25,375 nucleotides of DNA from a virus (IMGVR_UViG_3300032241_002220:1-25375), one strand, 5' to 3'. Shown: positions 2,850 through 17,860, counted from the stretch's first letter. Numbers and translations are program-made. The notes: generated by a model not told the origin, from the sequence alone.

Positions 2850-3695
2850 ATGCTTAAAACAGAAAAAAGACGCGGTCGTCCATCATTAAAAAATCAAAAT
2901 ATGCAATTAAACGAACCAAAACGTAGAGGTCGTCCTGCTACTAAATTATTTGTTAGTACATTCAATCCAGATGAAGTAAAACTATTCAGAGGTAGTGATT
3001 TAAGATTTAGTGATGCTTTGTTTCAACCTATGAAAACAAACCGTGAAATAGATACTATATTATCTACAGATGGTGGTTTAATGCCTGGTACAAATATGGT
3101 ATTAGTAGGTGGACCTGGTTCAGGTAAATCAACTGTTGCCTTAGATATGTTAGCTGATTTTACAAATCAAGGTTATAAATGTTTGTTTGTTTCAGCTGAA
3201 ATGGATGAAATCGCTCATTACAAATATTGTAAGCGTATGCCTAAATTTCAAAATGTACAAACATTGTTTTTGAAAAATTATGCTGAAAATATCAAAGAAA
3301 CAATTGAACATGTTTTCAATCAAGGTTATGATGTTATAGCAATCGATTCAATTGCTGAAGTAATTGAAATGTATAAAGATGCTTATCGTACAACTGAATC
3401 TGCTGCCGAATTTTGGTTTTTAAATTTACAAGATCAACATAAAAAAGGTGGTAACGAAAACAGTTATTATACTACATTTATCAACATTCAACAAGTTACT
3501 AAAGCAGGTGATTTTGCCGGTAGTAATAGGTTAAAACACATGACTGATGCTATGTGTCACGTAGAGCGTAATAAAGATGGTTTACAACGTAGCCTATATT
3601 TTAGTAAAAATCGTGATTGTGATAAGGATTTTAAAGTATTTTTTAGTATATTCCAGGATTCAGTTCATTATTCATATGAAACAACTAACGATTAA
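2850..3695 (+). CDS. RadA/Sms-like RecA-family ATPase with two N-terminal AT-hook motifs
   Basis: Walker A GGPGSGKS, Walker B VIAIDS, AGSNRLKH (cf. RadA AGPKxLEH) and SKNR (cf. KNRFG). KRRGRP occurs at residues 6-11 and 24-29. There is no C4 zinc finger and no Lon-like C-terminal domain. Confidence 0.75.
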   Translation: MLKTEKRRGRPSLKNQNMQLNEPKRRGRPATKLFVSTFNPDEVKLFRGSDLRFSDALFQPMKTNREIDTILSTDGGLMPGTNMVLVGGPGSGKSTVALDMLADFTNQGYKCLFVSAEMDEIAHYKYCKRMPKFQNVQTLFLKNYAENIKETIEHVFNQGYDVIAIDSIAEVIEMYKDAYRTTESAAEFWFLNLQDQHKKGGNENSYYTTFINIQQVTKAGDFAGSNRLKHMTDAMCHVERNKDGLQRSLYFSKNRDCDKDFKVFFSIFQDSVHYSYETTND

Positions 3696-3697
3696 TT

Positions 3698-4204
3698 ATG
3701 GCTTATAACAGTATATTAGATGGTTTTGTCTCTTCATCAAAGGAAGTAATTGATTTTGAAATCAGTAAATTGCAACCTTTAAAATACAATCGTTTCTTTT
3801 GGTGGAGAAATTATACTACTAAAACAAAACCATTACACAAATATCAACCTTTGATTAATAAAATCAAAAATGGAGATTTTGATCCATCACCATATCGTTG
3901 GATGGCGCAAAAAGCCATTTTAGAGGCCCAAAACAAAATAGACCTCACTAAAGACGACCACCAAAAACAATCCGAAATAGCAGCAATGGATATAGCCCGT
4001 TATCGCAGATTAATGGTTGATTTTGAAAAGGACGAAACAGAACGTTTAAAGCTATTATACAATGATTTTAGATTATCCTTTAGATTAGATGAAGAAACAG
4101 TACAAGATGAAATGTTTAATTTTGATGGTACACTAGAAGAATTTTATCACTATATTAGAAAAAAATATAGGGAAAATAATAGAGTACTTGGAGATTTTAG
4201 TTAA
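3698..4204 (+). CDS. hypothetical protein (168 aa)
   Basis: Long ORF starting 2 nt after the ATPase stop; no motif recognised. Confidence 0.65.
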   Translation: MAYNSILDGFVSSSKEVIDFEISKLQPLKYNRFFWWRNYTTKTKPLHKYQPLINKIKNGDFDPSPYRWMAQKAILEAQNKIDLTKDDHQKQSEIAAMDIARYRRLMVDFEKDETERLKLLYNDFRLSFRLDEETVQDEMFNFDGTLEEFYHYIRKKYRENNRVLGDFS

Positions 4205-4218
4205 TTTAATTATATTTA
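4187..4218 (+). promoter_or_regulatory. putative promoter CTTGG-N19-TATATTTA upstream of the TGT/DpdA-like gene
   Basis: CTTG at 4187-4190, a 20-nt spacer and TATATTTA at 4211-4218. Confidence 0.55.
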
Positions 4219-4235
4219 TTGATACAACATAGGTT

Positions 4236-5033
4236 ATGAATAAAAAAATAAAAGTTTCACATGAAGTTCCTTTTGATTTATTGGATATAAGTGCTGAGTT
4301 CAATGATTACGATTATTGTTTACCTCATTTATTAGACGAAAGTGAACAATATTTAGAATATTTTAAATGGGCTAAAGCAAATGGTCGTTATATTATAATG
4401 GATAATTCACTTCATGAATTAGGTACCGCTTATAATACAGATCGTTTATTATATTGGGTAAATGAGTTAAAACCAAACGAATTCATTATTCCAGATGTTT
4501 GGGAAAATAAAACTCAATCAATCATTAATGCTAGAAAATGGGCTAGTATTCAATTACCTGAAGAAATAACTAAAGTAGCTGTTGTACAATTTAATTTTAT
4601 AACAGATGCTACTGAATGTTACCAAACATATAAAGATCTAGGTTATAAAAAGATAGCATTTTCATATGGTGCTTCTTGCTATAACCTAATTTCATCTCAT
4701 CCAAATAAAGATATGGGTAAAGCATTAGGTAGAATTGAATTAATATCTAAACTTTATAAAAATAGAATAATATCATCAACCGACAGAGTACATTTATTAG
4801 GATGTGCTGTACCACAAGAATTTGGTTGGTATGATGATATGCCTTTTATTGAAAGTATTGATACATCAAATCCAATTATGGCTGCTTTAGAAGGTACAGC
4901 TTATAATTTTGGTTTAAATACTAAACCTAAAATCAATATGAATCAAGCTCAAACTTGGCCTATTGATGAAATTAATTTAGATTTGGTATATCACAATGTT
5001 GATGTTTTTAGATTAATAAACAACTTAAATTAA
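4236..5033 (+). CDS. TGT-fold transglycosylase-like protein, candidate phage DpdA (inserts 7-deazaguanine)
   Basis: TGT-family motifs appear in the expected order: IIMDNS (D56; cf. DSG), IIPDV (D87), VAVVQ, VHLLG (H186) and ESIDTS (D209; cf. nucleophile in D-x-F-D). There is no C-terminal zinc site. It lies upstream of queC/queD/queE/folE. Confidence 0.65.
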   Translation: MNKKIKVSHEVPFDLLDISAEFNDYDYCLPHLLDESEQYLEYFKWAKANGRYIIMDNSLHELGTAYNTDRLLYWVNELKPNEFIIPDVWENKTQSIINARKWASIQLPEEITKVAVVQFNFITDATECYQTYKDLGYKKIAFSYGASCYNLISSHPNKDMGKALGRIELISKLYKNRIISSTDRVHLLGCAVPQEFGWYDDMPFIESIDTSNPIMAALEGTAYNFGLNTKPKINMNQAQTWPIDEINLDLVYHNVDVFRLINNLN

Positions 5034-5046
5034 ATATAATATGACA
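5025..5046 (+). repeat. 22-bp direct repeat, copy 1 (TTAAATTAAATATAATATGACA)
   Basis: Identical to 5251-5272. It contains the stop codon of the TGT-like gene and the start of the 69-aa ORF. Confidence 0.85.
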
Positions 5047-5250
5047 GAATTTATTTCACTTTACGATTATTTAGGAAAACCAGCAGGATCTGCTCTAGGT
5101 AAAAAAGTCTACCAGTTTTCACAAATTATAGGGGCTAAAACTAGTTGCAAAAGGATATCCTATTCACCATACAGAGATGGTATTATTATGACCTATGAAA
5201 AGAGCACATTGCAAAAATATTTCGAGGTTGAATCCTTGTTTAAATCATAA
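5041..5250 (+). CDS. hypothetical protein (69 aa), flanked by 22-bp direct repeats
   Basis: ORF track; its leader is identical to that of the next ORF. Confidence 0.65.
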   Translation: MTEFISLYDYLGKPAGSALGKKVYQFSQIIGAKTSCKRISYSPYRDGIIMTYEKSTLQKYFEVESLFKS

Positions 5251-5272
5251 TTAAATTAAATATAATATGACA
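5251..5272 (+). repeat. 22-bp direct repeat, copy 2
   Basis: Identical to 5025-5046; contains the ATG at 5267. Confidence 0.85.
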
Positions 5273-5437
5273 AAATTAGATGATATAGTTTTAAAAACTA
5301 AAAAACCACAAGGCAATATTAATCCTGTATTTGAAGAAGAATTAGTAAAAGTATTACAACAAATTTGGGATAACCGATTTAATGTCAGTCATTCTATGTT
5401 AAAAATACTTAAACACGTTGCAAATAAAAAATCTTAA
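5267..5437 (+). CDS. hypothetical protein (56 aa), not in the ORF track
   Basis: My translation: MTKLDDIVLKTKKPQGNINPVFEEELVKVLQQIWDNRFNVSHSMLKILKHVANKKS*. It fills the gap exactly and stops 1 nt before the queC ATG at 5439. Confidence 0.65.
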   Translation: MTKLDDIVLKTKKPQGNINPVFEEELVKVLQQIWDNRFNVSHSMLKILKHVANKKS

Positions 5438-5438
5438 T

Positions 5439-6332
5439 ATGAAAAAACAAGTAGTAATATCATTATCAGGGGGTATGGATTCAAGTACTCTACTCCTACA
5501 TTACCTATCATCCGGTTACCAATGTACTTGTATCTCATTTGATTATGGTCAAAAACATAAAGTTGAATTAGAGCGAGCAACTGAATTAGTACACTATATA
5601 AACAGTAATATATCAAACAATGTTAAACATCAGATTATCAAATTAGATGGTTTAGCTCAATTATTAAATTCATCATTGGTAGAAGGTGGAGAAGATGTTC
5701 CTGAAGGTCACTATGCTGAAGAAAACATGAAAGCAACTGTAGTACCAAATCGCAATAAAATATTTGGTAGTATTGCTCAAGCAATAGCATTATCTATTGC
5801 TACTCAAACAAATAATGAATGTAAAATTGCTTTAGGTATTCATGCTGGAGACCATAGTATTTATCCTGATTGTAGACAAGAGTTTAGAGATGCTGACTAT
5901 AAAGCATTTTTGTTAGGAAATTGGGATTCACATTTAGTAACATACGATGCTCCATTTTTACAAGTTGATAAATTTGATATTTTAAAACATGGATTAGAAT
6001 GTTGTGAGCAATTAGGTTTAGATTTTGATGAAGTATATAAACGTACTAACACAAGTTATAAACCAATTTTAATTGAAACTAAAGCATCTTTAGGAACAAT
6101 AGAATTTGAGCATGGTGGGATAATCCATAAACTCCCACAAGAAGCAACAGTATACAGTGAATGGTACTCTGATTATAAATCAGCATCATCTGTAGAACGA
6201 ATAGAGGCATTTATTAAGTTAGGACGTCCTGATCCTGTAGCATATGCTGATGAAACTGGTCCTGTATCTTGGGAAGTAGCTAAAGCTCATGTTGAACATA
6301 TTTTATCAAATCATTTGGCTATTAAAAACTAA
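5439..6332 (+). CDS. queC: 7-cyano-7-deazaguanine synthase QueC, variant lacking the zinc-binding cysteines
   Basis: PP-loop SLSGGMDS, FDYGQKH..E, VVPNRN and HAGDHSIYPDCR..F. The start is placed at ATG 5439 (MKKQVVISLSGG) rather than TTG 5418. The C-terminal Cys motif is replaced by TNTSY...DYKSASSVER. Confidence 0.9.
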   Translation: MKKQVVISLSGGMDSSTLLLHYLSSGYQCTCISFDYGQKHKVELERATELVHYINSNISNNVKHQIIKLDGLAQLLNSSLVEGGEDVPEGHYAEENMKATVVPNRNKIFGSIAQAIALSIATQTNNECKIALGIHAGDHSIYPDCRQEFRDADYKAFLLGNWDSHLVTYDAPFLQVDKFDILKHGLECCEQLGLDFDEVYKRTNTSYKPILIETKASLGTIEFEHGGIIHKLPQEATVYSEWYSDYKSASSVERIEAFIKLGRPDPVAYADETGPVSWEVAKAHVEHILSNHLAIKN

Positions 6333-6345
6333 TATTGTATATTTA
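6314..6345 (+). promoter_or_regulatory. putative promoter TTTGG-N19-TATATTTA overlapping the queC 3' end
   Basis: TTTG at 6314-6317, a 20-nt spacer and TATATTTA at 6338-6345, 5 nt before the next ATG. Confidence 0.65.
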
Positions 6346-6350
6346 CCGGT

Positions 6351-6554
6351 ATGAGAAGAAGAAGAGATTTAGAAACTGAACCTTTTTATGTTGTGTTGAA
6401 TCAACAAGGAGAAGTATTTATAGGACTAAAACAAGGTAGACCTGTATATTCACCTAATTGGAGTGAAGCAAAACCCCTAAATAGCAGCAATACAACAATG
6501 CTTAAATACCTTAATCAAAAAATTGAATTAATTAAAGAAGAAGAATTTATATGA
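6351..6554 (+). CDS. hypothetical protein (67 aa)
   Basis: ORF directly behind a promoter motif; no motif recognised. Confidence 0.6.
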   Translation: MRRRRDLETEPFYVVLNQQGEVFIGLKQGRPVYSPNWSEAKPLNSSNTTMLKYLNQKIELIKEEEFI

Positions 6555-6555
6555 T

Positions 6556-6588
6556 TTTGGTGTGATCCTTGATTTTAATAATATGTAT
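6556..6588 (+). promoter_or_regulatory. degenerate promoter-like site TTTGG-N19-AATATGTA upstream of HE2
   Basis: TTTG at 6556-6559 and a 20-nt spacer. The downstream box has 2 mismatches to TATATTTA. Confidence 0.4.
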
Positions 6589-6592
6589 AACC

Positions 6593-7261
6593 ATGGAATA
6601 TACTAAAATATATTATTTACACAATGGTGATAACATACCTTTTTATATAGGGAAAACAAATGGAAATCTTATAGGTAGATTATCTGGTCACAAAATAAGA
6701 TTAAAAACTAATTTTTTAAAAATAGAGTTGATAGATGAAGTTTATGTTAATGAATGGAAATTCTGGGAATCGTGGTATATTGAATTATTTAAATCATGGG
6801 GGTTTAAGTTAGAAAATAAAAATAAAGGAGGGGGTGGTTTGGAATACCATTCTTATTTAACCAAAATTAAAATAAGTAAATCTAAAATAGGAAAACCTAA
6901 TCCTTTCAAAGGTATATCTAAATCAAAAGAATTTGGAGATATGATAAAAAATCATCCAACACGTGGTAAAAAAATAAGCGAATCTAATATGGGTAAAATC
7001 CATTCTAATAGAGGAAAACCATTTACTGAAGAACACAAACAGAAAATTAAATTAACTAGAGATTTTTTAAAAAATAGAAAAAATACATGGCAAAACACTC
7101 CAGTAATCCAATATGATCTTCAAGGTAATTTTATAAAAGAATGGAATTCGCAAAAAGAAGCATCTATTTTTTTAAAAACTAAAGGTGATGGGGTTGGAGC
7201 CTGTTGTAGAGGAAAACAAAAATCTGCTTATGGGTTTATTTGGAAATTTAAAACAAATTAA
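6593..7261 (+). CDS. free-standing GIY-YIG homing endonuclease with NUMOD3-like and NUMOD1 modules (HE2)
   Basis: KIYYL...FYIGKT..R, WESWYIE and LENKNKGGGG; GKPFTEEHKQKI; C-terminal PVIQYDLQGNFIKEW...CC.GK.KSAYGFIWKF. The start is placed at ATG 6593 (MEYTK). Confidence 0.85.
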   Translation: MEYTKIYYLHNGDNIPFYIGKTNGNLIGRLSGHKIRLKTNFLKIELIDEVYVNEWKFWESWYIELFKSWGFKLENKNKGGGGLEYHSYLTKIKISKSKIGKPNPFKGISKSKEFGDMIKNHPTRGKKISESNMGKIHSNRGKPFTEEHKQKIKLTRDFLKNRKNTWQNTPVIQYDLQGNFIKEWNSQKEASIFLKTKGDGVGACCRGKQKSAYGFIWKFKTN

Positions 7262-7270
7262 TTATATTTA
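7239..7270 (+). promoter_or_regulatory. putative promoter TTTGG-N19-TATATTTA embedded in the last codons of HE2
   Basis: TTTG at 7239-7242 is formed by the Ile-Trp codons (ATT TGG). After a 20-nt spacer, TATATTTA lies at 7263-7270, just past the stop codon. Confidence 0.65.
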
Positions 7271-7282
7271 AAATAAAAAATT

Positions 7283-7528
7283 ATGAGACAATTATTCTTT
7301 TTTCATGCTTCATGGTGTCAACCGTGTAAAGCCTTTAGTCCTATAATGGACCAAATTTCAAAACAAATCCCCGTGAAAAAAATCAACATCGATTACGAAC
7401 CCGATGTAAACGGTAGATTTAATGTATCTAGTATTCCTACTGTAATACTTGTGGAAAATGAACGAGAAGTTCGTAGATTTGTAGGTGTTAAATCTTACAA
7501 TGAAGTAATGGATTTTATAAAAGGTTAA
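7283..7528 (+). CDS. thioredoxin-family protein (WCQPC)
   Basis: FFHASWCQPCK, and VSSIPTVILV with the cis-Pro motif; 81 aa. Confidence 0.9.
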   Translation: MRQLFFFHASWCQPCKAFSPIMDQISKQIPVKKINIDYEPDVNGRFNVSSIPTVILVENEREVRRFVGVKSYNEVMDFIKG

Positions 7529-7531
7529 AAT

Positions 7532-8011
7532 ATGGGAAGATACATTTCAACAAAAACATTCGACAATTACTCTGTAGCCATCAGACAATGGAAAGCACAA
7601 CACTCACACTGTCAGCTACTCCACGGTTATGGAATTTATTTTAAAGTATGGTTTGCCTCAAATGAACCAATGGAAGAAAATCAACTAGACGATATGAATT
7701 GGATTGTTGATTTCGGTGGCTTTAAAGCACCACCTAAAGGCAATGGTTTAAAAGACTGGATGGACTATATGTGGGATCATACCTTACTAATTGAAAAAGA
7801 CGATCCGTACCTTGATTTCTTCAAATCAGCCGAAATGGAAGGTTTATGCCATGTTCGAGTAATGGATAAAATGGGATGTGAAAGTCTAGCTAAATTAGTT
7901 TATGACAAATTCAACGATGTATTATCTAAAACAGATGCTGGTCGTTGTAAAGTAATCAAAGTAGAATGCTTTGAACATGGAAAAAATTCATCAATTTATC
8001 AAGAAAATTAA
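7532..8011 (+). CDS. queD: 6-carboxy-5,6,7,8-tetrahydropterin synthase QueD (PTPS family, HCxxxHGY variant)
   Basis: RQWKAQHSHCQLLHGY, WIVDFGG, WDHTLL, GCESLA and VECFEH; T-fold size; pathway context. Confidence 0.85.
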   Translation: MGRYISTKTFDNYSVAIRQWKAQHSHCQLLHGYGIYFKVWFASNEPMEENQLDDMNWIVDFGGFKAPPKGNGLKDWMDYMWDHTLLIEKDDPYLDFFKSAEMEGLCHVRVMDKMGCESLAKLVYDKFNDVLSKTDAGRCKVIKVECFEHGKNSSIYQEN

Positions 8012-8017
8012 AATAAT

Positions 8018-8305
8018 ATGTGTGTAGTATCAATGGTCGGAGACCACTATAGTGACAAATGGAAACAACCTCAATGGAATGGAACTATAAGTAATGTAAC
8101 TTATAATCCTTCTCAAGTATCAAAAGAAGATTTTGACGCTTTAAAGAAAGACGTAGAAGAAATGAAAAAACTTCTTGAACGCGCTCTTGATTATGATAAA
8201 CGTAACAACGAACCTAACTGTGAAATGGAAGAAAAAGTAGCATTACTTAAAAAAGTAGCAGAATTGGTTGGTGTTAGCTTAGAAGATATATTTCCTAAAC
8301 AATAA
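8018..8305 (+). CDS. hypothetical protein, helical/coiled-coil C-terminal half
   Basis: ORF track; heptad-like FDALKKDVEEMKKLLERA. Confidence 0.65.
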   Translation: MCVVSMVGDHYSDKWKQPQWNGTISNVTYNPSQVSKEDFDALKKDVEEMKKLLERALDYDKRNNEPNCEMEEKVALLKKVAELVGVSLEDIFPKQ

Positions 8306-8317
8306 AAATAAAATAAA

Positions 8318-8542
8318 ATGAAGACAATTCTCAGTAATGGAGTTTACTCAAGAGTAGACAATGAAGTGGCTGACCGTGAAGTATCATTCGGTCGAGCTAA
8401 ATTTGCACCTAAATCCGAATGGAAGAAAAATGTTCGTGATATTAAACCAGAAGAAGTAGTTGTAGCCGAAGAAAAAGGTGAAAAAACTAAATCTAGAAAA
8501 GCTGAAAAAGCTCGTAAATTAAAAGCTAAACAAAGACAATAA
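8318..8542 (+). CDS. small basic hypothetical protein
   Basis: ORF track; Lys/Arg-rich tail KTKSRKAEKARKLKAKQRQ. Confidence 0.6.
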   Translation: MKTILSNGVYSRVDNEVADREVSFGRAKFAPKSEWKKNVRDIKPEEVVVAEEKGEKTKSRKAEKARKLKAKQRQ

Positions 8543-8543
8543 T

Positions 8544-8729
8544 ATGGAAGCTAATATTTCAAAACAAATTATTATGTGCGAGCGTTGTAAAGGCGAAGGT
8601 CAAGAATATAAACGTACTTCTCATTATGATAGCGAATATGTTATTTGTGAAGCCTGTAACGGTTCAGGTAGATTAGTTAAAGAAACAACCGTTAAATATT
8701 ATCCATTTAAAAACAACAATAATGAGTAA
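8544..8729 (+). CDS. small DnaJ-type cysteine-rich zinc-finger protein
   Basis: Two CxxCxGxG repeats (CERCKGEG, CEACNGSG) in 61 aa; no J-domain HPD motif. Confidence 0.7.
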   Translation: MEANISKQIIMCERCKGEGQEYKRTSHYDSEYVICEACNGSGRLVKETTVKYYPFKNNNNE

Positions 8730-9555
8730 AATAGATCCAAACAAACTACTTATCAGTAGCGACTTCTACTCAGTACAAGGAGAAGGTATTAGTACAGGTA
8801 TCCCATCTTACTTTATCAGATTAGGTTTATGTAATTTAACTTGTGGTATGAGCAATAAATTCCTCAACCAACTTGTTAAAGACAAAAAACTAGAAGACGG
8901 AGAAATATTTGTAGGTGATCTACAAGCAGAAGGTAAAGCAACTTGGACTTGCGATTCTACATCACAATGGGCCTGGAGAGGTGAAGATAAAGATTTTCAA
9001 TATTTGATTAATCAGTGGAAAGAACAAGGTATCTATGACGATATTTTAAATGGTACAATTCATATTATTTGGACAGGTGGTGAACCTACAATTAAAGGAC
9101 ATCAAGAAGCTATTGTAAATTTTATTCAATATATGTGGGAATGTGATTCATATAATTATACCCCATTTCATGAAATAGAAACAAATGGAACAAACTATAT
9201 TGAAGATGAACTTTTAAAGTCATTAGACCAAATTAACTGCTCCCCAAAATTATCAAATTCAGGTTTATCAGCTAAACAGCGTATTAATCCAGAGGCTATT
9301 AAACGTATAATGCAACATTCTAATTATCAATTTAAATTCGTAATTTCCAATGAAGAAGATGTACAAGAAATATTCCGTGACTTTATCATACCATTTAGCA
9401 TACCTCTTGCCAACGTGGTTTGTATGCCAGGATTAGATGATGCTGCTAATTTTGAAGAACGAACTCGATTTGTTTTGGAGCTTGCCAAAAAATATCGCTT
9501 CCGCGGTCTTACACGACTGCATATAGCTGCATGGAACAAAACATTAAACGTATAG
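8722..9555 (+). CDS. queE: 7-carboxy-7-deazaguanine synthase QueE (radical SAM), with a CX3CX35C cluster motif
   Basis: FYSVQGEG..TG.PS.FIRL..CNLTC, WTCDS, TGGEP, EIETNGT, CSPKL, FKFVI and R..RLHI. Confidence 0.9.
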   Translation: MSKIDPNKLLISSDFYSVQGEGISTGIPSYFIRLGLCNLTCGMSNKFLNQLVKDKKLEDGEIFVGDLQAEGKATWTCDSTSQWAWRGEDKDFQYLINQWKEQGIYDDILNGTIHIIWTGGEPTIKGHQEAIVNFIQYMWECDSYNYTPFHEIETNGTNYIEDELLKSLDQINCSPKLSNSGLSAKQRINPEAIKRIMQHSNYQFKFVISNEEDVQEIFRDFIIPFSIPLANVVCMPGLDDAANFEERTRFVLELAKKYRFRGLTRLHIAAWNKTLNV

Positions 9556-9557
9556 TT

Positions 9558-9992
9558 ATGATACTTCAGAACCGAAAAGCATATTACAATTACCATATAC
9601 TTGAAGAGTATATAGCAGGAATAATGCTAGTTGGTTCTGAAGTTAAATCTATTCGTAACCATGATATTAATTTTAAAGATAGTTATATTTATATCAACAA
9701 CAATGAAGTATTTGTTAAACAAATGTTTATAGGAAAATATAAACAAGCGGTACATACTAATCATGAAGAAGTTAGAGATAGAAAATTATTGTTAACTAGA
9801 AAACAAATACGAAACATTCAAAAACAGCTTCAAGTAACAGGTATTACATCTGTACCTTTAGAAATATTTGAAATGAGTGGTAAATTTAAAATTAAAATAG
9901 CAATAGCTAAAGGTAAAAAATTATATGATAAACGTGATGTTATCAAAGAAAAAGATATCAAATTACAAACCCAAAGAGAACTTATAAAATAA
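9558..9992 (+). CDS. smpB: SsrA-binding protein SmpB
   Basis: NRKAYYNYHILE..IAGIMLVGSEVKSIR, R.RKLLL, VPLE and AKGKKLYDKR. The start is placed at ATG 9558, just after the queE stop. Confidence 0.92.
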   Translation: MILQNRKAYYNYHILEEYIAGIMLVGSEVKSIRNHDINFKDSYIYINNNEVFVKQMFIGKYKQAVHTNHEEVRDRKLLLTRKQIRNIQKQLQVTGITSVPLEIFEMSGKFKIKIAIAKGKKLYDKRDVIKEKDIKLQTQRELIK

Positions 9993-10004
9993 TTATCTAT
10001 CATC

Positions 10005-10667
10005 ATGGATACAAAACCTTATATTTTTAATATTGAATATCAGAACGGACTTCGTATTTCATGTCATGACATAATTAATCCTGATACTGAATTTTGGATT
10101 CGTGTTTATATTAAAGCTCAAAATAGAAATAAAAAATTAATTTGGGAATCTAATAACTCAGGAGGAGCTATTGTAGATGAAATTATTATGAATAATGAAT
10201 CATTTAATATTCCTTTTTTAGAAACATCTATAAAAAATCATCATTTTACAGATTTCTTTTATAAAGGATTTGTTTCATATAATATTGAAATTACTAAACG
10301 TTATACTGAAGAAATAATATATTCTGAATCATTTGATTGTCGTTATAAATTAGTTAATTTTACTTTACATAGTAATGATATTAAAGAATTACATACTTGG
10401 ATGTGTGCTATTAAAAAGTTTAAAGATGAAACTAATTGTGAAATATCAATAATAAATGATTGGATATGGGAAAACAAAGAATATGATTTTGTAGACGCTT
10501 ATTATCGTTTTAAAGATAATTTTAACCAATATTATGCTGGTTATGTTATAGGACGATTTGGTGATGAAAACGCTCCTGATTTTTATAGAAATCCGGATGG
10601 GTTAAAAAACAAAACATCATTAGACATTATTGAAGATATTTTATACCATTTTACTAAGAAATTATGA
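10005..10667 (+). CDS. hypothetical protein, possibly the N-terminal half of a TibC/AAH-like (GT9-related) glycosyltransferase
   Basis: A beta-rich N-terminus is followed by ESFDCRYKLVNFTLHSNDIKELHTWMCAIKKFKDETNCEISI and YAGYVIG, reminiscent (from memory) of the S-x-S-L-G-D..W..F segment of that family. The LGD motif is absent. Confidence 0.35.
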   Translation: MDTKPYIFNIEYQNGLRISCHDIINPDTEFWIRVYIKAQNRNKKLIWESNNSGGAIVDEIIMNNESFNIPFLETSIKNHHFTDFFYKGFVSYNIEITKRYTEEIIYSESFDCRYKLVNFTLHSNDIKELHTWMCAIKKFKDETNCEISIINDWIWENKEYDFVDAYYRFKDNFNQYYAGYVIGRFGDENAPDFYRNPDGLKNKTSLDIIEDILYHFTKKL

Positions 10668-11314
10668 ATAATGTTTTAATGATAATGAATGCTCGAAACA
10701 TAGCCCCTTTTAAGGAATGTGTTGATAAATTAAACATTAATAAAGTTTGGTTTAAAGGTTATACTGAATTTGAACTAAATACACATATTAACAAATTTAT
10801 TCAGGAAACAAGTTATGATAATTATTTTTTAGCACCTGATGATTTATTAATTAAAAAACATCATTTTGAATTGTTAGAAAGAAAATTACAACATCATGAT
10901 ATAGTTACTGGTTGGGGTGTTTGGAGACAAAATTATAATTGGACTACAATTTATAAAAAAGATAAATTACACGTGTATTGTCAAGGATCATCATTACCGT
11001 TATTTAAAAAACATTACAACGTAGTTTATACACATGAAATAGACTCCATGCCAAACGAAATAGAAACCGCTTTTACCGGCTGGTTCTATACAGGAGCCAA
11101 ACGCCAAGTATGGTTAGATTATCCTTACCAAACCATTTCAGTAAGTAAAGAACAAAATGTTGCTTCAACAGATTTACATTGGTCTAAAAGAATATTGGAA
11201 GATAAAAAATATAAGCAAATATGTATTAAAGACGCTAGGGTAACTCATATTTCATATATTGGACATGATTACCTGGATTTAAAATTTGATACTAAAGAAA
11301 TCATATATGAATAA
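10664..11314 (+). CDS. putative GT-A fold (family 2-like) glycosyltransferase
   Basis: YDNYFLAPDDLLI (DxD-like), DIVTGW, FTGWFYTGAKR..W and a late VTH; ATGA overlap with the upstream gene. Confidence 0.5.
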   Translation: MNNVLMIMNARNIAPFKECVDKLNINKVWFKGYTEFELNTHINKFIQETSYDNYFLAPDDLLIKKHHFELLERKLQHHDIVTGWGVWRQNYNWTTIYKKDKLHVYCQGSSLPLFKKHYNVVYTHEIDSMPNEIETAFTGWFYTGAKRQVWLDYPYQTISVSKEQNVASTDLHWSKRILEDKKYKQICIKDARVTHISYIGHDYLDLKFDTKEIIYE

Positions 11315-11588
11315 AAAATTATTAAAAGAATCAATACAACGCAAAGAAAAATCACTATTGTTTTTTAATGCTAGTTGGTGTGGTGTTTGTCAAGATGTTA
11401 ATCCTATAGTAGAACAAATTAGAGAATCAAAACCTGATTATAGATTTTATAACATGAATATTGATGATAGGGATACTGAAGAAATAAGTGAAATATTTGA
11501 AGTTGATTTTATTCCTGTTTTAGTTGTAATATCTGAAACGGGTTATAAAGTTTATGATGGTAAACATCAAATTAAGAAATTACTTTAA
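11307..11588 (+). CDS. thioredoxin-family protein (WCGVC)
   Basis: FFNASWCGVCQ and VDFIPVLVV. The start is placed at ATG 11307, overlapping the upstream gene by 8 nt. Confidence 0.85.
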   Translation: MNKKLLKESIQRKEKSLLFFNASWCGVCQDVNPIVEQIRESKPDYRFYNMNIDDRDTEEISEIFEVDFIPVLVVISETGYKVYDGKHQIKKLL

Positions 11589-11620
11589 TTTGGTTGTATA
11601 AAAATAAGTTATTATATTAT
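11589..11620 (+). promoter_or_regulatory. putative promoter TTTGG-N19-TATATTAT upstream of folE
   Basis: TTTG at 11589-11592, a 20-nt spacer and TATATTAT at 11613-11620. Confidence 0.65.
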
Positions 11621-11641
11621 TAGAAATAAAATTTATATTAA

Positions 11642-12277
11642 ATGGAGTTATTGAAAAAATCAAATGGTAGCTTACCACGCACGCAAGAAGAAATCGATAA
11701 TATGATTGATCAAGCTGAAAAAGCGTATGGTGAGTTTCTTACAGCAGTTGGATTTGATTATAAAGCAGATCGTCAAACTGAAGATACACCTCGTCGTGTA
11801 GCCAAAGCATGGCTTAAAGACCTAATTGTAGGTTCAATTACAGATGAACCAAAAATCACAGTATTCCCTAATGATGAAGGATATAGTGGATTAGTAATCC
11901 AATCAGGTATTCCTATTGTTAGTATGTGTGCACATCACAATTTAGCATTTACAGGTTATGCTACTGTAGCTTATGTACCTGGTGAAAATGTAATTGGATT
12001 ATCTAAATTAAATCGTATTGTAGAATGGTTTTCTCGCCGTCCACAAATGCAAGAATCATTAACACAACAAATTCATGATTATATTGCTGATAAAATGAAA
12101 TGTGGTTCAGTAGCAGTAAGTATTGCTTGTAAACATACTTGTTGTTCACATAGAGGTATTAAACATCCTTCAGTAATGACTACAAATAAATTTAGTGGTG
12201 TGTTTATGGAAAAGGATAATTTAATTAGAGAAGAATTTTTACACGCAATTGAAACAAACGCCCCTGCTTTAAAATAA
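11642..12277 (+). CDS. folE: GTP cyclohydrolase I
   Basis: DTPRRVAK, SMCAHH, GLSKLNRIV..FSRRPQMQE.LT and HTCCSHRG. Confidence 0.95.
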   Translation: MELLKKSNGSLPRTQEEIDNMIDQAEKAYGEFLTAVGFDYKADRQTEDTPRRVAKAWLKDLIVGSITDEPKITVFPNDEGYSGLVIQSGIPIVSMCAHHNLAFTGYATVAYVPGENVIGLSKLNRIVEWFSRRPQMQESLTQQIHDYIADKMKCGSVAVSIACKHTCCSHRGIKHPSVMTTNKFSGVFMEKDNLIREEFLHAIETNAPALK

Positions 12278-12681
12278 TGGAAAAGATATATTTAAACTGG
12301 GCTGGTATAGAATCATATATTGATACTTTAGCTTATAAAATAGCAGCAAGTGGAAAACAAGTAACAGTTATTCATGGATTGTCTAGAGGTGGATTAATAC
12401 CCTCAGTATTATTATCTCACAAATTAGGTATTCCTTATGTAAATGATTGGCCTATACTTAAACATTTATATGATCCTAAAACAACACTAATAGTTGATGA
12501 TATTTGCGACTCGGGTAAAACATTAAAACCTTATACTGATTATATTACAGTTACTCTTCACCACAAAACAACAGCTATTGTTGAGCCTACATTTTGGGTT
12601 AAAACAGTAGAAGAAAACGAATGGATTGTTTATCCATGGGAAAGTAAAGAATCACAAACAATTCAAGATTATAAATTATAA
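12277..12681 (+). CDS. type I phosphoribosyltransferase (Gpt/Hpt-like purine PRTase)
   Basis: GLSRGGLIP, PRPP-binding LIVDDICDSGKT and WIVYPWE; its ATG overlaps the folE stop (TAATG). Confidence 0.88.
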   Translation: MEKIYLNWAGIESYIDTLAYKIAASGKQVTVIHGLSRGGLIPSVLLSHKLGIPYVNDWPILKHLYDPKTTLIVDDICDSGKTLKPYTDYITVTLHHKTTAIVEPTFWVKTVEENEWIVYPWESKESQTIQDYKL

Positions 12682-12854: not shown

Positions 12855-13307
12855 ATGATAACAATATACGCACATAAAACCCATCCAGATGCAGTTATAC
12901 CAACTGTAGCATATGGTTCAACATCAGCATGTTTTGATATAACATGCACTGAAACAACAACAATCCCTGCTAGAGGTAAAGCAGTAGTACCAAATGGTTT
13001 AAACCTAACAATCCCAGATAATTTAAATTATTGGATGCAAATTCAATTACGTTCTAGTAAAGGTTTCAAACATGATTTGGTACCTCATTACGGAACAGTA
13101 GATGCTGGTTACACAGGAAATTTAGGTATTAAAGTTTACAACTTAGGTGATACTGACGTAGTAATTGAAAAAGGTGAAAAATACGCTCAAATAGCTGTTA
13201 TTGAAAGACCTGAATATGAAATTATTGAACTAAACGATCAAGAATTTGAGTCATTTAAAACAACTCAACTTCGTGGAGATAGCGGATTTGGTTCAAGTGG
13301 AAAATAA
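12855..13307 (+). CDS. dut: trimeric dUTPase
   Basis: All five motifs are present: SACFDI, LRSS, GTVDAGYTG, YAQI and RGDSGFGSSG. Confidence 0.92.
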   Translation: MITIYAHKTHPDAVIPTVAYGSTSACFDITCTETTTIPARGKAVVPNGLNLTIPDNLNYWMQIQLRSSKGFKHDLVPHYGTVDAGYTGNLGIKVYNLGDTDVVIEKGEKYAQIAVIERPEYEIIELNDQEFESFKTTQLRGDSGFGSSGK

Positions 13308-13644: not shown

Positions 13645-16239
13645 ATGTATCAAGCAATTTATTTTGACAGGGAAGAAAAACAATATTATCTTAGAGATGA
13701 TGAAAAAGGATGGAAATCATTTCAATATTGGCCCACTTACTATTATCCAGACGAAGATGGTGAATTTGAAACATTGGATGGTAACAGAGTAAGCCCTGTT
13801 AAAAGAATAAAAGATTGGAATGACACCAACTATTATGAAAAAGATGTAGACAAATGTACACGATTGCTTGTTGATTATTATTATGAATCTGATGAAACCC
13901 CAAATCATCACAATATTATTTACTTAGATATTGAGTGTGAAATAGCAGGAGCGTTAACTGAAGATAGTATTAAAAACGCTCCTACTAAAATCACATCTGT
14001 TGCTTTATATGATAATAACAGTAAAAAATATTACTGTTTGATTCTAGATGAAGCAAAATTAATGAAGAAAGTAAATGATAAAAGTAAAGAAGTAATTCCT
14101 TATCATAATGAAAAAGAATTACTTGATGGTTTCCTAGACATTTGGATTGATTTAGACCCAACCATTATTACAGGATGGAATAGTGGATTTTTTGATATTC
14201 CTTATTTATATTATCGCATTAGTAAAGTATTGGGAGAATCAAAAGCCAATATGCTATCACCATTAGGTAAAGTACATTTTACACCCCAATTTCCAGAACA
14301 ACCCGTTAATTTAGCAGGTATTAATCACCTAGATTATATGTTGTTGTTTAAGAAATTTATTACTAAACAGGAACCAAGTTATCGTTTAGGTGATATAGGT
14401 ACAAAATATGTTAATTTAGGTAAAATTGATTATAAAGGTTCATTGGATAAATTATTTAAAGAAGACGTAAATAAGTTTATTGAATATAATATTCGTGACG
14501 TTGAAATTATTGTTGAATTAGAAAAAAGTCAAAAATTTATTGATTTAACAGTAGCTATTGCTCACTTATGTCATACAGAATATGAACAAATTTATTTTTC
14601 AACAATGTTAAATGAAGGAGCAATTTTAACCTATTTAAAACGTAGAGGTATTGTTTCTCCAAATAAACCAACAACTTATAATCCTGCCTTAAAAGAATTA
14701 AAAGAAGAATATGCCGGTGGATATTTAAAAGATCCGGTTCCTGGTTTATACGAGTGGGTTATTGATCTAGATTTTACATCACTGTATCCTTCAATTATTC
14801 GTTCTTTAAACATGGGAATTGAAACATTAGTAGGACGTGTTGTAAATAAAGGTAAATTTGATAATCAATGGTCTCTTAAGGAATTAAAGGAAATGAATCC
14901 TGAAACTATTGTTACTGTTGAAAAAGTAAAAAAAGACAAACGATTATCTCAAGCTCAAATTTCTATAGGTAAATTAATTGAATTAATAGAAGAAAATAAT
15001 CTATTAATATCAGCACCTGGTGTTATGTTCCGTAAGGATAAAGCAAGTGTGGTTTGTGAAATTTTATCTGATTGGTTTGATAAACGTCAAGAGTATAAAA
15101 AATTGATGAGAAAAGCATTTAAAGAAGATAAAGATCCGGTTATGGGTGAATTTTACAATCGCCAACAACACGCATATAAAATTAAATTAAACGACGTCTA
15201 TGGTGTATTCGCGATAAATGGTTGGAGATATACAGACGGAAATAAATTCATTTCTAAAGCGATTACTTTAACAGGTCAACGTTTAATCCAAGAATCCATT
15301 AAATTTACAAATAATTGGATGAATGAACAGTTAGGCACTGATGGTAAAGATTATATTGTAACCTCTGATACCGACTCATTATTTATTCAAGTTAAAGACC
15401 TAATACTACAACGCAACCCAGAATTAAAAGGTGCTAGTCGTGAAGAAATTACTGCTGAAGTATTAAAAGTGGCTACTGAAATACAAAAATTAGCAAATGC
15501 TCATCTTCATGTTTTGGTTAAGGAATTATTTAATGTTGATTATCCTAATGAGCCTCATTATTTTGAATTAAAACAAGAAGTTGTACTTGAACGAGGTTAT
15601 TTTTCAGGTAAAAGAAGATACGCTCAATTTATAGTAAATAAAGAAGGTGTACCTGTAGAAGAATTAGATATGAAAGGTTTAGATTTGATGAAATCTAATT
15701 TCCCACCATTGTTTAAAAACTTTGGAGAACATATCCTTAAGGAATTAATGTTTGGTAAAACTAAATCTTCTATTGATAAACAAATACTTGATTTTAGAAC
15801 ATCGCTACGAACCGTAGAATGGGAAAAAATACTTAAACCAACAGGTTTAAAACATTTAGAAGGTTATATTGCTCGAGGTCCTGGAGCTGGTGAAATATTT
15901 TCAAAATTAGCATTAAAGTGTCCTATTAATACTAAAGCAGCAATTTATTTTAATGATTTGGTTCGTTTTAAAAAGCTAGACAAAAAATACCCTACATTTC
16001 AAATTGGTGATAAAATGTTTATAGCTTATTTAAAAGAAAATCCATATAAAATAGATGTTATAGGATTTAACGGATATAATGATCCTCCAGAAATAATGGA
16101 ATTTATTGAAAAATATATTGACCGTGATGGTATATTTGAATCTGTTATGAAGAATAAATTAGAATCGGTTTATGCTGATTTAGGGTGGGGTTCACCTGTA
16201 TTTAACAATAATGTAAGTAAGTTTTTTACATTTGGCTAA
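13645..16239 (+). CDS. family B DNA polymerase (T4 gp43-like) with 3'-5' exonuclease domain
   Basis: ExoI LDIECE, ExoII GWNSGFFDIPY, ExoIII YNIRD; motif A DFTSLYPS, motif B KIKLNDVYG, motif C SDTDS; then KRRY and KGLD. Confidence 0.96.
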   Translation: MYQAIYFDREEKQYYLRDDEKGWKSFQYWPTYYYPDEDGEFETLDGNRVSPVKRIKDWNDTNYYEKDVDKCTRLLVDYYYESDETPNHHNIIYLDIECEIAGALTEDSIKNAPTKITSVALYDNNSKKYYCLILDEAKLMKKVNDKSKEVIPYHNEKELLDGFLDIWIDLDPTIITGWNSGFFDIPYLYYRISKVLGESKANMLSPLGKVHFTPQFPEQPVNLAGINHLDYMLLFKKFITKQEPSYRLGDIGTKYVNLGKIDYKGSLDKLFKEDVNKFIEYNIRDVEIIVELEKSQKFIDLTVAIAHLCHTEYEQIYFSTMLNEGAILTYLKRRGIVSPNKPTTYNPALKELKEEYAGGYLKDPVPGLYEWVIDLDFTSLYPSIIRSLNMGIETLVGRVVNKGKFDNQWSLKELKEMNPETIVTVEKVKKDKRLSQAQISIGKLIELIEENNLLISAPGVMFRKDKASVVCEILSDWFDKRQEYKKLMRKAFKEDKDPVMGEFYNRQQHAYKIKLNDVYGVFAINGWRYTDGNKFISKAITLTGQRLIQESIKFTNNWMNEQLGTDGKDYIVTSDTDSLFIQVKDLILQRNPELKGASREEITAEVLKVATEIQKLANAHLHVLVKELFNVDYPNEPHYFELKQEVVLERGYFSGKRRYAQFIVNKEGVPVEELDMKGLDLMKSNFPPLFKNFGEHILKELMFGKTKSSIDKQILDFRTSLRTVEWEKILKPTGLKHLEGYIARGPGAGEIFSKLALKCPINTKAAIYFNDLVRFKKLDKKYPTFQIGDKMFIAYLKENPYKIDVIGFNGYNDPPEIMEFIEKYIDRDGIFESVMKNKLESVYADLGWGSPVFNNNVSKFFTFG

Positions 16240-17055: not shown

Positions 17056-17220
17056 ATGAAACAACAAACTAAAGCAATTCAAATTGATGTTAAAATTCAC
17101 AAACAACTAAAAAAACATTGTGATGATAATGGTTTAAAAATGCAAAAGTTAGTTGAAAAAATAATTATAAATGAGATAGAACATGATAGGGATTTACAAA
17201 ATAATAAACCCCAAAGATAA
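17056..17220 (+). CDS. ribbon-helix-helix-like small DNA-binding protein (54 aa), not in the ORF track
   Basis: My translation: MKQQTKAIQIDVKIHKQLKKHCDDNGLKMQKLVEKIIINEIEHDRDLQNNKPQR*. It shows the strand (KAIQID) - helix - G turn - helix pattern and overlaps the HE3 start by 38 nt. Confidence 0.65.
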   Translation: MKQQTKAIQIDVKIHKQLKKHCDDNGLKMQKLVEKIIINEIEHDRDLQNNKPQR

Positions 17221-17860
17221 AATTTATATTGGACAAACAGTAAATTGGGATAGAAGAAAAAAAGATTATAAAATTTTAAGATGTAAAGGTCAAATAAAAT
17301 TATATAATTCATTTAAAAAATATGGGATTGAAAATCATATATTTGAAATTATAGAAGAATGTTCTGTTGAAGATCTTAATAAAAAAGAAAGATATTGGCA
17401 AGATTTTCACAATGTTTTAGAAAATGGTCTTAATTGTAGATTAACAACCTCTGAAGATAAAAGTGGTTTTCTTTCTGAAGAAACAAAATTAAAAATGAGA
17501 GGAAAAAAACAAAGTAATGACCATAAACAAAAACTTGGTAAAAGTAGAAAAGGAAAAAAAAGAACAGAAGAAACAAAACAAAAAATGATTAATTCAAGTT
17601 ACATTAAAGGAAAAAAAAGAACAGAAGAAACAAAACAAAAAATAAGCAAAACTCATTTAAAACTTAAAATTACTAGATTCAATAAACATCTTAATAAACC
17701 TATTATTCAATATAATAAACAAGGTATTTTTATTAAAGAATGGATCAACGCTACAGAAGCGGCTAAAAATTTAAATAAAGCAAGTGTTGCCATTTCTGAG
17801 TGTTGTAATGAAAAAAGAAAATCAGCTTATGGGTTTGTTTGGAAATTTAAAACAAATTAG
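17183..17860 (+). CDS. free-standing GIY-YIG homing endonuclease with NUMOD3 repeats and NUMOD1 (HE3)
   Basis: Canonical GIYKI...IYIGQT..R, L..SFKKYG..N..FEIIE, E..W and NGLN; KGKKRTEETKQK twice; C-terminal NUMOD1 ending KSAYGFVWKF. Confidence 0.92.
   Translation: MIGIYKIINPKDKIYIGQTVNWDRRKKDYKILRCKGQIKLYNSFKKYGIENHIFEIIEECSVEDLNKKERYWQDFHNVLENGLNCRLTTSEDKSGFLSEETKLKMRGKKQSNDHKQKLGKSRKGKKRTEETKQKMINSSYIKGKKRTEETKQKISKTHLKLKITRFNKHLNKPIIQYNKQGIFIKEWINATEAAKNLNKASVAISECCNEKRKSAYGFVWKFKTN
17549..17643 (+). repeat. exact 38-bp direct repeat inside HE3 (17549-17586 and 17606-17643)
   Basis: AAAGGAAAAAAAAGAACAGAAGAAACAAAACAAAAAAT twice with a 57-nt period, encoding KGKKRTEETKQK. Confidence 0.9.

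Follow-up and report, generated by a model that had tools for sequence, protein, structure and literature searches.

A region of 8.4 kb (positions 4236-12681) of the viral contig IMGVR_UViG_3300032241_002220 can, with fairly good confidence, be regarded as a DpdA3-type module for the hypermodification of DNA with 7-deazaguanine, carried by a large uncultured phage whose host is probably a member of the Flavobacteriia. The contig is a linear IMG/VR sequence of 89,375 bases with a completeness of 56% (CheckV) and a guanine plus cytosine (GC) content of 0.31, and 115 of its 130 open reading frames (ORFs) of at least 80 amino acids (aa) lie on the plus strand; the window, i.e., the whole stretch of DNA analysed here, comprises its first 25,375 bases. 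The genes for FolE, QueD, QueE and QueC are all located within 8.5 kb and on the same strand as the gene for the transglycosylase DpdA3, and the same is true of 80 related IMG/VR loci (cited by L numbers) in which DpdA3 is 55-80% identical to the window protein. As stated in a preliminary description of this DNA, these genes, including one coding for a protein with the fold of tRNA-guanine transglycosylases (TGT) and one for a phosphoribosyltransferase (PRTase), are all found on the plus strand by Pfam, PHROG and NCBIfam, and the dUTPase (12855) and the family-B DNA polymerase PolB (13645) come next. However, the layout that it had called scattered is in fact a conserved synteny interrupted by a few inserted genes, which in the window are a homing endonuclease gene, smpB, a glycosyltransferase-like pair and several small ORFs. 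The order conserved across the 80 loci is o168, DpdA3, o69, QueC, thioredoxin, QueD, QueE, FolE or FolE2, optionally the PRTase, a MazG-like gene and PolB, with FolE2 (GCYH-IB, Pfam E = 1e-70) substituting for FolE in four loci.

With respect to the transglycosylase, Pfam gives only a sub-threshold match to DUF6610 (E = 1e-3), and phrog_19058 is matched with E = 1e-34. The protein shares 33% identity with the DpdA annotated in Flavobacterium phage immuto_2-6A (immuto in the following) and also with gp056 of Campylobacter phage CP220, and the tblastn E values are 3e-42 for immuto, 2e-30 for CP220 and 2e-4 for the Cellulophaga phage phiST. Comparison with the known members by profile and phylogeny, as the preliminary description had suggested, places it within DpdA3: a profile built from the four named members of phiST (CGPG_00065), immuto, CP220 and CP21 scores the window protein with 158 bits (E = 2e-44) over positions 2-254 of 256, and in a tree of 130 sequences, which is rooted at its midpoint and informative on placement only, the named members bracket the family with the window protein nested within it. 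Since DpdA3 was published in 2023 as a system type (PMC10516641), and since its closest characterised relative, immuto, displays the same unusual motifs, the transglycosylase does not represent an undescribed, non-canonical branch as formerly supposed, and the motif oddities outlined below are traits of a clade that includes immuto. In turn, the best match in a collection of 50,697 phage records, which was used for both tblastn and megablast, is only 37% identical, and megablast of the entire 8.4-kb region against these records gave no match. As the metagenomic family is very abundant (3211 clusters at 90% identity, 1458 at 50%) and no cultured match exceeds 37% identity, characterised phages evidently sample the DpdA3 family poorly.

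The AlphaFold 2 (AF2) model of DpdA3, computed from an alignment of 119 sequences, has a pLDDT of 97.5 and a pTM of 0.93. With this model, Foldseek retrieves TGT structures at a probability of 1.0 (E = 2e-8), and VIA-align superposes it on archaeal and bacterial TGT and on DpdA with Z scores of 17.3-17.8 (17.8 for 1iq8, 17.3 for DpdA 7ui4) and root mean square deviations of 3.1-3.3 Å over 231-238 residues. The possibility, raised in the preliminary description, that the ORF at 4236 might have no TGT fold thus falls away. Structure or hhalign is needed to see this relationship, because searching PDB sequences with the alignment profile returned only chance matches to TIM-barrel designs, and DpdA itself at E = 0.11. 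In hhalign, the segments GVVQG, HLLGC and SIDTSNP of DpdA3 pair with GIIQG, YLMGVG and MFDCVMP of E. coli Tgt, and the last of these pairs identifies D209 as the counterpart of the TGT/DpdA nucleophile, an aspartate shown by mutagenesis to be essential in DpdA (PMC10164549). Nine positions (D56, E61, P86, R166, H186, L188, G189, D209 and P213) are invariant in all 119 sequences, and T210, S211 and D87, the last with a conservation of at least 90%, hardly vary; from the place of D56 at a strand end we infer that it might act as the general acid. The 119-sequence alignment contains no conserved Cys/His cluster, and the C-terminus extends for about 55 residues past the last strand; the protein is a bare barrel devoid of a zinc subdomain.

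Among the enzymes of the pathway leading from GTP to the 7-deazaguanine base, the translation of FolE contains the motifs SMCAHH and CKHTCCSHRG. The preliminary description had pointed out that the metal motifs of QueC and QueE depart from the textbook, and the alignments bear this out and reveal a departure in QueD, too. The true start of QueC is probably the ATG at 5439. The protein scores 136 bits with its Pfam model (cut-off 22) and retains the PP-loop motif SGGxDS as SLSGGMDSS, yet remains below the equivalog cut-off of NCBIfam TIGR00364 (132.7 versus 150.3); none of the four zinc cysteines known from E. coli QueC is retained in the proteins of the window and immuto or in any of the 53 clade members, and their site is replaced by a conserved domain of about 85 aa at the C-terminus. 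This extra domain is carried by at least 8000 metagenomic QueC proteins. QueD passes the Pfam PTPS threshold (41 versus 22), but its signature HCQLLHGY follows the pattern CxxxHGY instead of CxxxHGH, the second zinc histidine being a tyrosine in 58 of 58 clade members including immuto. QueE has no match in Pfam and is only weakly matched by five NCBIfam QueE models, without reaching the equivalog cut-off of any of them (best score 42, cut-off 260). Its cluster motif C37-x3-C41-x35-C77 conforms neither to Cx3Cx2C nor to Cx14Cx2C, but all three cysteines are invariant in 43 sequences, and so are the substrate motif QxEG (Q19, E21, G22) and the S-adenosylmethionine (SAM) motif TGGxP (T118-G119-G120-P122). 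The second and third cysteine are separated by seven residues in most relatives and in immuto, but by a spacer of 35 residues in the window, L004-7, L026 and L052/53. The AF2 model of QueE was not used, as its mean pLDDT is 68 and falls below 50 in the region 36-85, which precludes judging from it whether C37, C41 and C77 converge. The variant QueC, QueD and QueE are presumably active all the same, because immuto shares them and guanine in its DNA is fully replaced by fdPreQ1, which derives from preQ0 (7-cyano-7-deazaguanine; PMC10516641).

The start codon of the PRTase gene overlaps the stop codon of folE (TAATG), which confirms the coupling of the two genes noticed before and amounts to translational coupling. 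The best matches of the protein are xanthine-guanine PRTases (PDB 1vdm, 1a95 and 6kqc), and in the alignment with these three structures the phosphoribosyl pyrophosphate (PRPP) loop VDDICDSGKT and the stacking tryptophan (W116/W121 motifs) are kept; its NCBIfam score of 48.7 is below the equivalog cut-off of 138. In all 15 loci that have both, the PRTase gene adjoins folE or folE2, in either order. A tblastn search of the phage collection (E <= 1e-3) found homologues in only 18 records, namely four of immuto, five of phiST type, two of Brevundimonas phages, one of Synechococcus phage BUCT-ZZ01, two of Sphingomonas phage vB_StuS_MMDA13, and four fragments or unverified scaffolds. In the Brevundimonas phages, including MaInes, folE lies directly upstream of the PRTase gene and a QueD-family gene is present in the genome, and in BUCT-ZZ01 the PRTase gene is situated inside the Que cluster, between queE and queD-folE. 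Gp31 of MMDA13 (L095 5920-6807), which is annotated as GTP cyclohydrolase I and encoded next to DpdA, is a fusion in which residues 1-118 are a PRTase (matching the window PRTase in BLASTP with E = 2e-9, RGG and VDDLIDTGKT being kept) and residues 116-294 a FolE. A weaker homologue is encoded by CP220, at a distance of two genes from a radical-SAM gene. Taken together, at least six phage lineages combine a PRTase with 7-deazaguanine genes or with FolE/QueD genes. A phosphoribosyltransferase is not mentioned in the main text of PMC10516641, a full-text literature search for the combination of a PRTase with the 7-deazaguanine pathway yielded nothing, and the searchable literature contains no discussion of guanine recycling by a PRTase as a pull on the DpdA exchange. 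Coupling to the first, GTP-consuming enzyme of the pathway suggests guanine salvage, and we therefore give about even chances to the hypothesis that the PRTase recycles the guanine released by DpdA and thereby pulls the exchange to completion.

According to the mechanism proposed here, FolE, QueD, QueE and QueC would turn GTP into a free 7-deazaguanine base, most likely preQ0, which DpdA3 would put in the place of guanine in phage DNA through covalent catalysis by an aspartate, with D209 as the putative nucleophile and D56 as the putative general acid. The PRTase would most likely convert the released guanine to GMP, removing a competing product and refilling the GTP pool on which FolE draws. 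Replacement would probably be near-complete, as in the three characterised phages in which DpdA3 is linked to complete replacement of guanine (dADG in CP220, dDG in phiST and fdPreQ1 in immuto; PMC10516641), and would render the DNA refractory to restriction enzymes, in keeping with the anti-restriction role already proposed in the preliminary description. A number of points nevertheless weigh against this reading. Attempts to demonstrate an action of DpdA3 on DNA in vitro or in E. coli are reported by the authors to have failed (PMC10516641), and DNA exchange by DpdA3 consequently rests on association. QueC, QueD and QueE all lack the textbook metal ligands, and immuto is the only precedent for their predicted activity. 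The PRTase has 134 instead of 152 aa, with about 15 residues of the flexible catalytic loop missing between 'IPYV' and 'DPK', and it must be considered an accessory component, because three near-complete relatives lack it and so do about 60% of the complete modules (present in about 11 of 29). Also, the window lineage lacks the MazG-like pyrophosphohydrolase of most relatives. Finally, the incomplete contig begins at base 1 of the window, and its missing part could encode QueF or another modifier, though the near-complete relatives have no QueF.

The fold of DpdA3 being that of tRNA-guanine transglycosylases, the enzyme and the preQ0 genes might instead modify RNA, such as phage tRNAs, in a queuosine- or archaeosine-like manner. 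This appears very improbable, however, since the bare barrel of 265 aa has no conserved Cys/His zinc site and no room for the C-terminal zinc and PUA domains, which in TGT serve tRNA binding, since the named DpdA3 relatives reside in phages with fully modified DNA, and since the module is placed among the replication genes for dUTPase, PolB and the clamp loader. A further scenario accepts DNA as the destination but assumes a pre-replicative route, in which the PRTase would turn the free 7-deazaguanine base into a ribonucleotide, from which kinases and ribonucleotide reductase would provide a deoxynucleoside triphosphate (dNTP) for incorporation by PolB, with DpdA3 having a secondary (patching) or different function. 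It could account for the complete replacement in the three characterised DpdA3 phages and for the ADG (7-amido-7-deazaguanine) nucleoside in the cytoplasm of CP220-infected cells (PMC10516641), and would agree with the recurrence of a purine PRTase with the pathway, with the MazG-like nucleoside triphosphate (NTP) pyrophosphohydrolase that most relatives keep between FolE and PolB and that adjoins FolE in phiST, and with a thymidylate-kinase-like gene that is the direct neighbour of DpdA3 in CP220 and CP21 and lies three genes away from it in immuto. However, not only is the PRTase missing from the three near-complete relatives and from most modules, but there is no Tmk-family kinase in the contig or in five relatives, no MazG-like gene in the window lineage, and DpdA3 is the universally conserved component; in addition, adjacency to or fusion with FolE/FolE2, a consumer of guanine nucleotide, fits guanine salvage better than a use of the end product. 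We therefore regard this route as quite improbable, and hardly more is to be said for the related assumption that the PRTase acts on the 7-deazaguanine base to make a nucleotide and that guanine is replaced at least in part before replication, via the dNTP pool and PolB.

As for the identity of the base, the preliminary description had held that it cannot be predicted from gene content alone. It is indeed not proven, but gene content narrows the choice, and the leading candidate is dPreQ0, which we hold to be somewhat better than an even bet. In the contig as well as in four relatives with a completeness of 92-100%, the search for QueF (PF14489) returned only the T-fold of FolE, below the cut-off, and immuto QueF and DpdN as tblastn queries found nothing. 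The 89-kb contig harbours no Pfam-TGT or ArcS-type gene and no formyltransferase (PF00551), and QueC carries no fused amidotransferase domain, in agreement with the absence of QueF, ArcS and Gat-QueC reported earlier for the window. A second PTPS-fold (DpdL-like) gene is found neither in this contig nor in any related locus, and within 10 kb of DpdA3 the relatives contain no DpdN or second QueD-fold gene. The search of the remaining genome for these genes that had been called for was therefore negative as far as the contig, at 56% completeness, extends. The lack of QueF, DpdN and a second QueD-fold gene in combination with an immuto-type QueC, which is far nearer to immuto QueC than to the QueC* of CP220, is what makes dPreQ0 the leading candidate.

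The DpdA3 family does not fix the product, because dADG, dDG and fdPreQ1 have all been found in phages that carry it, and the same system might therefore make a base other than dPreQ0, an alternative that we consider possible but rather doubtful. The zinc-less QueC could halt at the amide, as proposed for CP220 QueC*, giving dADG; or o168, o69, the thioredoxins, the C-terminal domain of QueC or the o220/o216 pair could convert preQ0 or CDG (7-carboxy-7-deazaguanine) into a new derivative; or the 44% of the genome that is missing could code for a modifier. In line with this, o168 and o69, which have no known family, track DpdA3 in 56 and 42 of the 80 loci, respectively, QueC carries its conserved extra domain, and the contig is incomplete. 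On the other hand, window QueC is 59-66% identical to that of immuto, which must supply preQ0 for QueF, and CP220 QueC* is more distant, as it keeps the zinc cysteines and lacks the extra domain; none of the four near-complete relatives encodes QueF, no locus has a DpdL-like second PTPS-fold gene, there is no formyltransferase in the contig, and o168 is absent from immuto and CP220. Accordingly, dADG is judged unlikely, and a base that is neither dADG nor dPreQ0 has a limited, though appreciable, chance, with dPreQ0 still preferred.

Features of the module and its immediate surroundings in the window
Feature	Positions	Strand	Basis or remark
o168, conserved DpdA3 neighbour	3698..4204	+	homologues in 56/80 loci
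DpdA3-family DNA guanine transglycosylase (putative)	4236..5033	+	265 aa, minimal TGT TIM barrel without zinc subdomain
o69, small conserved ORF directly after DpdA3	5041..5250	+	tblastn matches in 42/80 loci, mostly right behind DpdA3
QueC-type ATP-dependent synthase (CDG to preQ0), zinc-less variant	5418..6332	+	Pfam QueC E 1e-39
GIY-YIG/NUMOD homing endonuclease, inserted mobile gene outside the pathway	6569..7261	+	Pfam NUMOD3 + NUMOD1
Thioredoxin 1 (WCQPC), 3 nt upstream of QueD	7283..7528	+	Pfam Thioredoxin E 1e-15
QueD (6-carboxytetrahydropterin synthase)	7532..8011	+	Pfam PTPS E 1.6e-10; PHROG QueD-like E 2e-33
QueE (radical-SAM CDG synthase)	8722..9555	+	PHROG QueE-like E 9e-40 over 5-274
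SmpB	9531..9992	+	Pfam E 7e-49; NCBIfam above equivalog cut-off; full-length
Glycosyltransferase-like ORF pair (o220/o216), overlapping	10005-10667, 10664-11314	+	between SmpB and thioredoxin 2
Thioredoxin 2 (WCGVC), upstream of FolE	11286..11588	+	Pfam Thioredoxin E 6e-11
FolE (GTP cyclohydrolase I), first pathway step	11642..12277	+	Pfam E 2.5e-48; NCBIfam FolE E 2e-48
Short XGPRT-like purine phosphoribosyltransferase, 134 aa	12277..12681	+	Pfam E 1e-9; NCBIfam xanthine PRTase E 6e-13
dUTPase (trimeric)	12855..13307	+	takes the MazG-like position in the window lineage
Family-B polymerase PolB	13645..16239	+	follows dUTPase

The genes between 3698 and 12681 are tightly spaced, with intergenic gaps of -29 to +53 nt. 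Promoter-like sites are rarer than in shuffled sequences, the consensus scanned for being that of sigma-70, which may not fit the host, and the same scan found no plus-strand terminators in the region. About half of the o168 homologues are located directly upstream of DpdA3, and in L041, L042 and L046 the gene follows directly downstream. Neither Pfam, PHROG and NCBIfam nor the Atlas gave a match for o168, most of whose relatives end in an AT-hook-like RGRP motif. It is possibly an accessory of DpdA3, although the complex predicted for the two proteins scores 0.05 and has no bearing either way. Likewise, o69 matches no family. An ATPase gene at 2850-3695 was considered as a DpdB-like partner and rejected, as none of the 80 loci contains a homologue, and the DnaJ-type zinc-finger ORF at 8544-8729 was rejected as a partner of QueE because it is not kept upstream of QueE in the relatives.

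Thioredoxin 1 is present in 47 of the 80 loci, always adjoining QueD or QueE, and thioredoxin 2 in 28; several loci (L017, L021, L023, L024, L032, L035 and L043) have thioredoxins directly between QueD and QueE, and the immuto cluster has none. They possibly serve as reductants for the variant QueE or QueD, or merely for ribonucleotide reductase. As for the inserted genes, tblastn matches to the homing endonuclease were found in only 14 of 82 searched loci; it is one of three paralogous GIY-YIG/NUMOD genes within 16 kb on the plus strand (1673-2290, 6569-7261 and 17183-17860; 31-48% identical) and splits the QueC-QueD interval. SmpB, whose gene overlaps the end of queE by 25 nt, is limited among the fetched loci to the window lineage (the window and L004-L007). 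The first ORF of the o220/o216 pair weakly resembles O-heptosyltransferases of the TibC/Aah type (NCBIfam E = 8e-8), neither of the two has a Pfam family, and the pair recurs within the module in L010, L014 and L015; the modules of L063 and L078 hold an unrelated ORF of 298 aa without family match.

The MazG-like gene between FolE and PolB codes for an NTP pyrophosphohydrolase of the PRA-PH/MazG kind (L001 11288-11812; L008-L082, e.g., L011 16495). Its product shows 70-83% identity when immuto is compared with most of the uncultured phages, and 55-56% in L026, L052 and L053, in contrast to only 33% for the adjacent DpdA3, and phiST also has such a gene next to FolE. A mosaic breakpoint in the stretch 3698-5033 is evident from the comparison with the closest relatives, L004-L007, where QueC, QueD, QueE, SmpB and FolE are 94-100% identical at the protein level, thioredoxin 1 84% and DpdA3 80%, and where counterparts of o168 and of the ATPase at 2850-3695 are missing. 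Two divergent types each of QueD, QueE and FolE exist, and they are met in shuffled combinations across the 80 loci. Downstream of PolB, as in immuto, there is a gene for a GroEL-type chaperonin (18196-19812, plus strand, Pfam E = 8e-71), and a GT1-like glycosyltransferase gene (24095-25375, plus strand) is found at the end of the window.

DpdA3 is the only DpdA type tied to complete replacement of guanine, and no member has been reconstituted. What is new in comparison to the published system is an abundant uncultured branch without QueF, the spacer variant of QueE, the recurrent coupling of a PRTase to GTP cyclohydrolase, and a set of unexplained neighbours (o168, o69 and the thioredoxins). 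The link or fusion of the PRTase to GTP cyclohydrolase provides a concrete and testable hypothesis of how complete replacement might be sustained, and the zinc-less QueC, the CxxxHGY QueD and the QueE with a 7- or 35-residue spacer, all of them apparently functional, are good targets for enzymology. Many restriction enzymes are likely to fail on the DNA of such phages, which may also give unusual results when sequenced or cloned.

Among the known systems, that of immuto is the most similar. In addition to DpdA3 (33% identical) and the extended, zinc-less QueC (59-66%), the two phages share QueD of the CxxxHGY type (47%), QueE in which the second and third cysteine are set further apart (34%), FolE (47%) and, next to it, a short PRTase (48-53%), as well as GroEL and polymerase genes nearby and a host from the Bacteroidota. 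However, immuto possesses QueF, the formyltransferase DpdN, Tmk and a MazG-like gene, none of which is present in the window contig, it has PolA instead of PolB and a QueE spacer of seven instead of 35 residues, its DpdA3 gene comes after folE and not upstream of queC, and its DNA contains fdPreQ1, where dPreQ0 is predicted here. The Campylobacter phages CP220 and CP21 (Firehammervirus), in which dADG makes up 100% of G, resemble the window in DpdA3 (33-37% identical), PolB, low GC content, homing endonucleases, dispersed deazaguanine genes and a purine PRTase, but in CP220 QueC* retains the four zinc cysteines and has no C-terminal domain, the QueD motif is CxxxHSH, the genes extend over more than 100 kb in contrast to 8.5 kb, and the PRTase (28% identical) is found near a radical-SAM gene and not near FolE. 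In phiST (dDG at 100% of G), another DpdA3 member, QueD, QueE, FolE, the MazG-like gene and DpdA3 follow each other in this order upstream of the polymerase and a PRTase homologue exists elsewhere in the genome; yet its DpdA3 is only 22% identical, and it has no QueC but the QueD paralogue DpdL, whereas QueC and only one PTPS-fold gene are present in the window. The DpdA of the bacterial DpdA/DpdB/DpdC system of Salmonella Montevideo (7ui4; PMC10164549) has the TIM-barrel fold in common with the window protein (Z 17.3, 17% identity), as well as the proposed double-displacement chemistry with two essential aspartates, but with 413-436 aa and large insertions it is much larger, needs the ATPase DpdB, and modifies less than 0.1% of G as part of a restriction-modification system; homologues of DpdB or DpdC are not evident in the window. 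Lastly, the DpdA1 phages 9g and CAjan (dG+ or dPreQ0 at 25-32% of G) likewise employ FolE, QueD, QueE and QueC on the route to preQ0, dPreQ0 being the end product in CAjan (PMC10516641), but they combine this route with another DpdA subfamily, a canonical QueC or Gat-QueC, and a partial, motif-dependent replacement of guanine.

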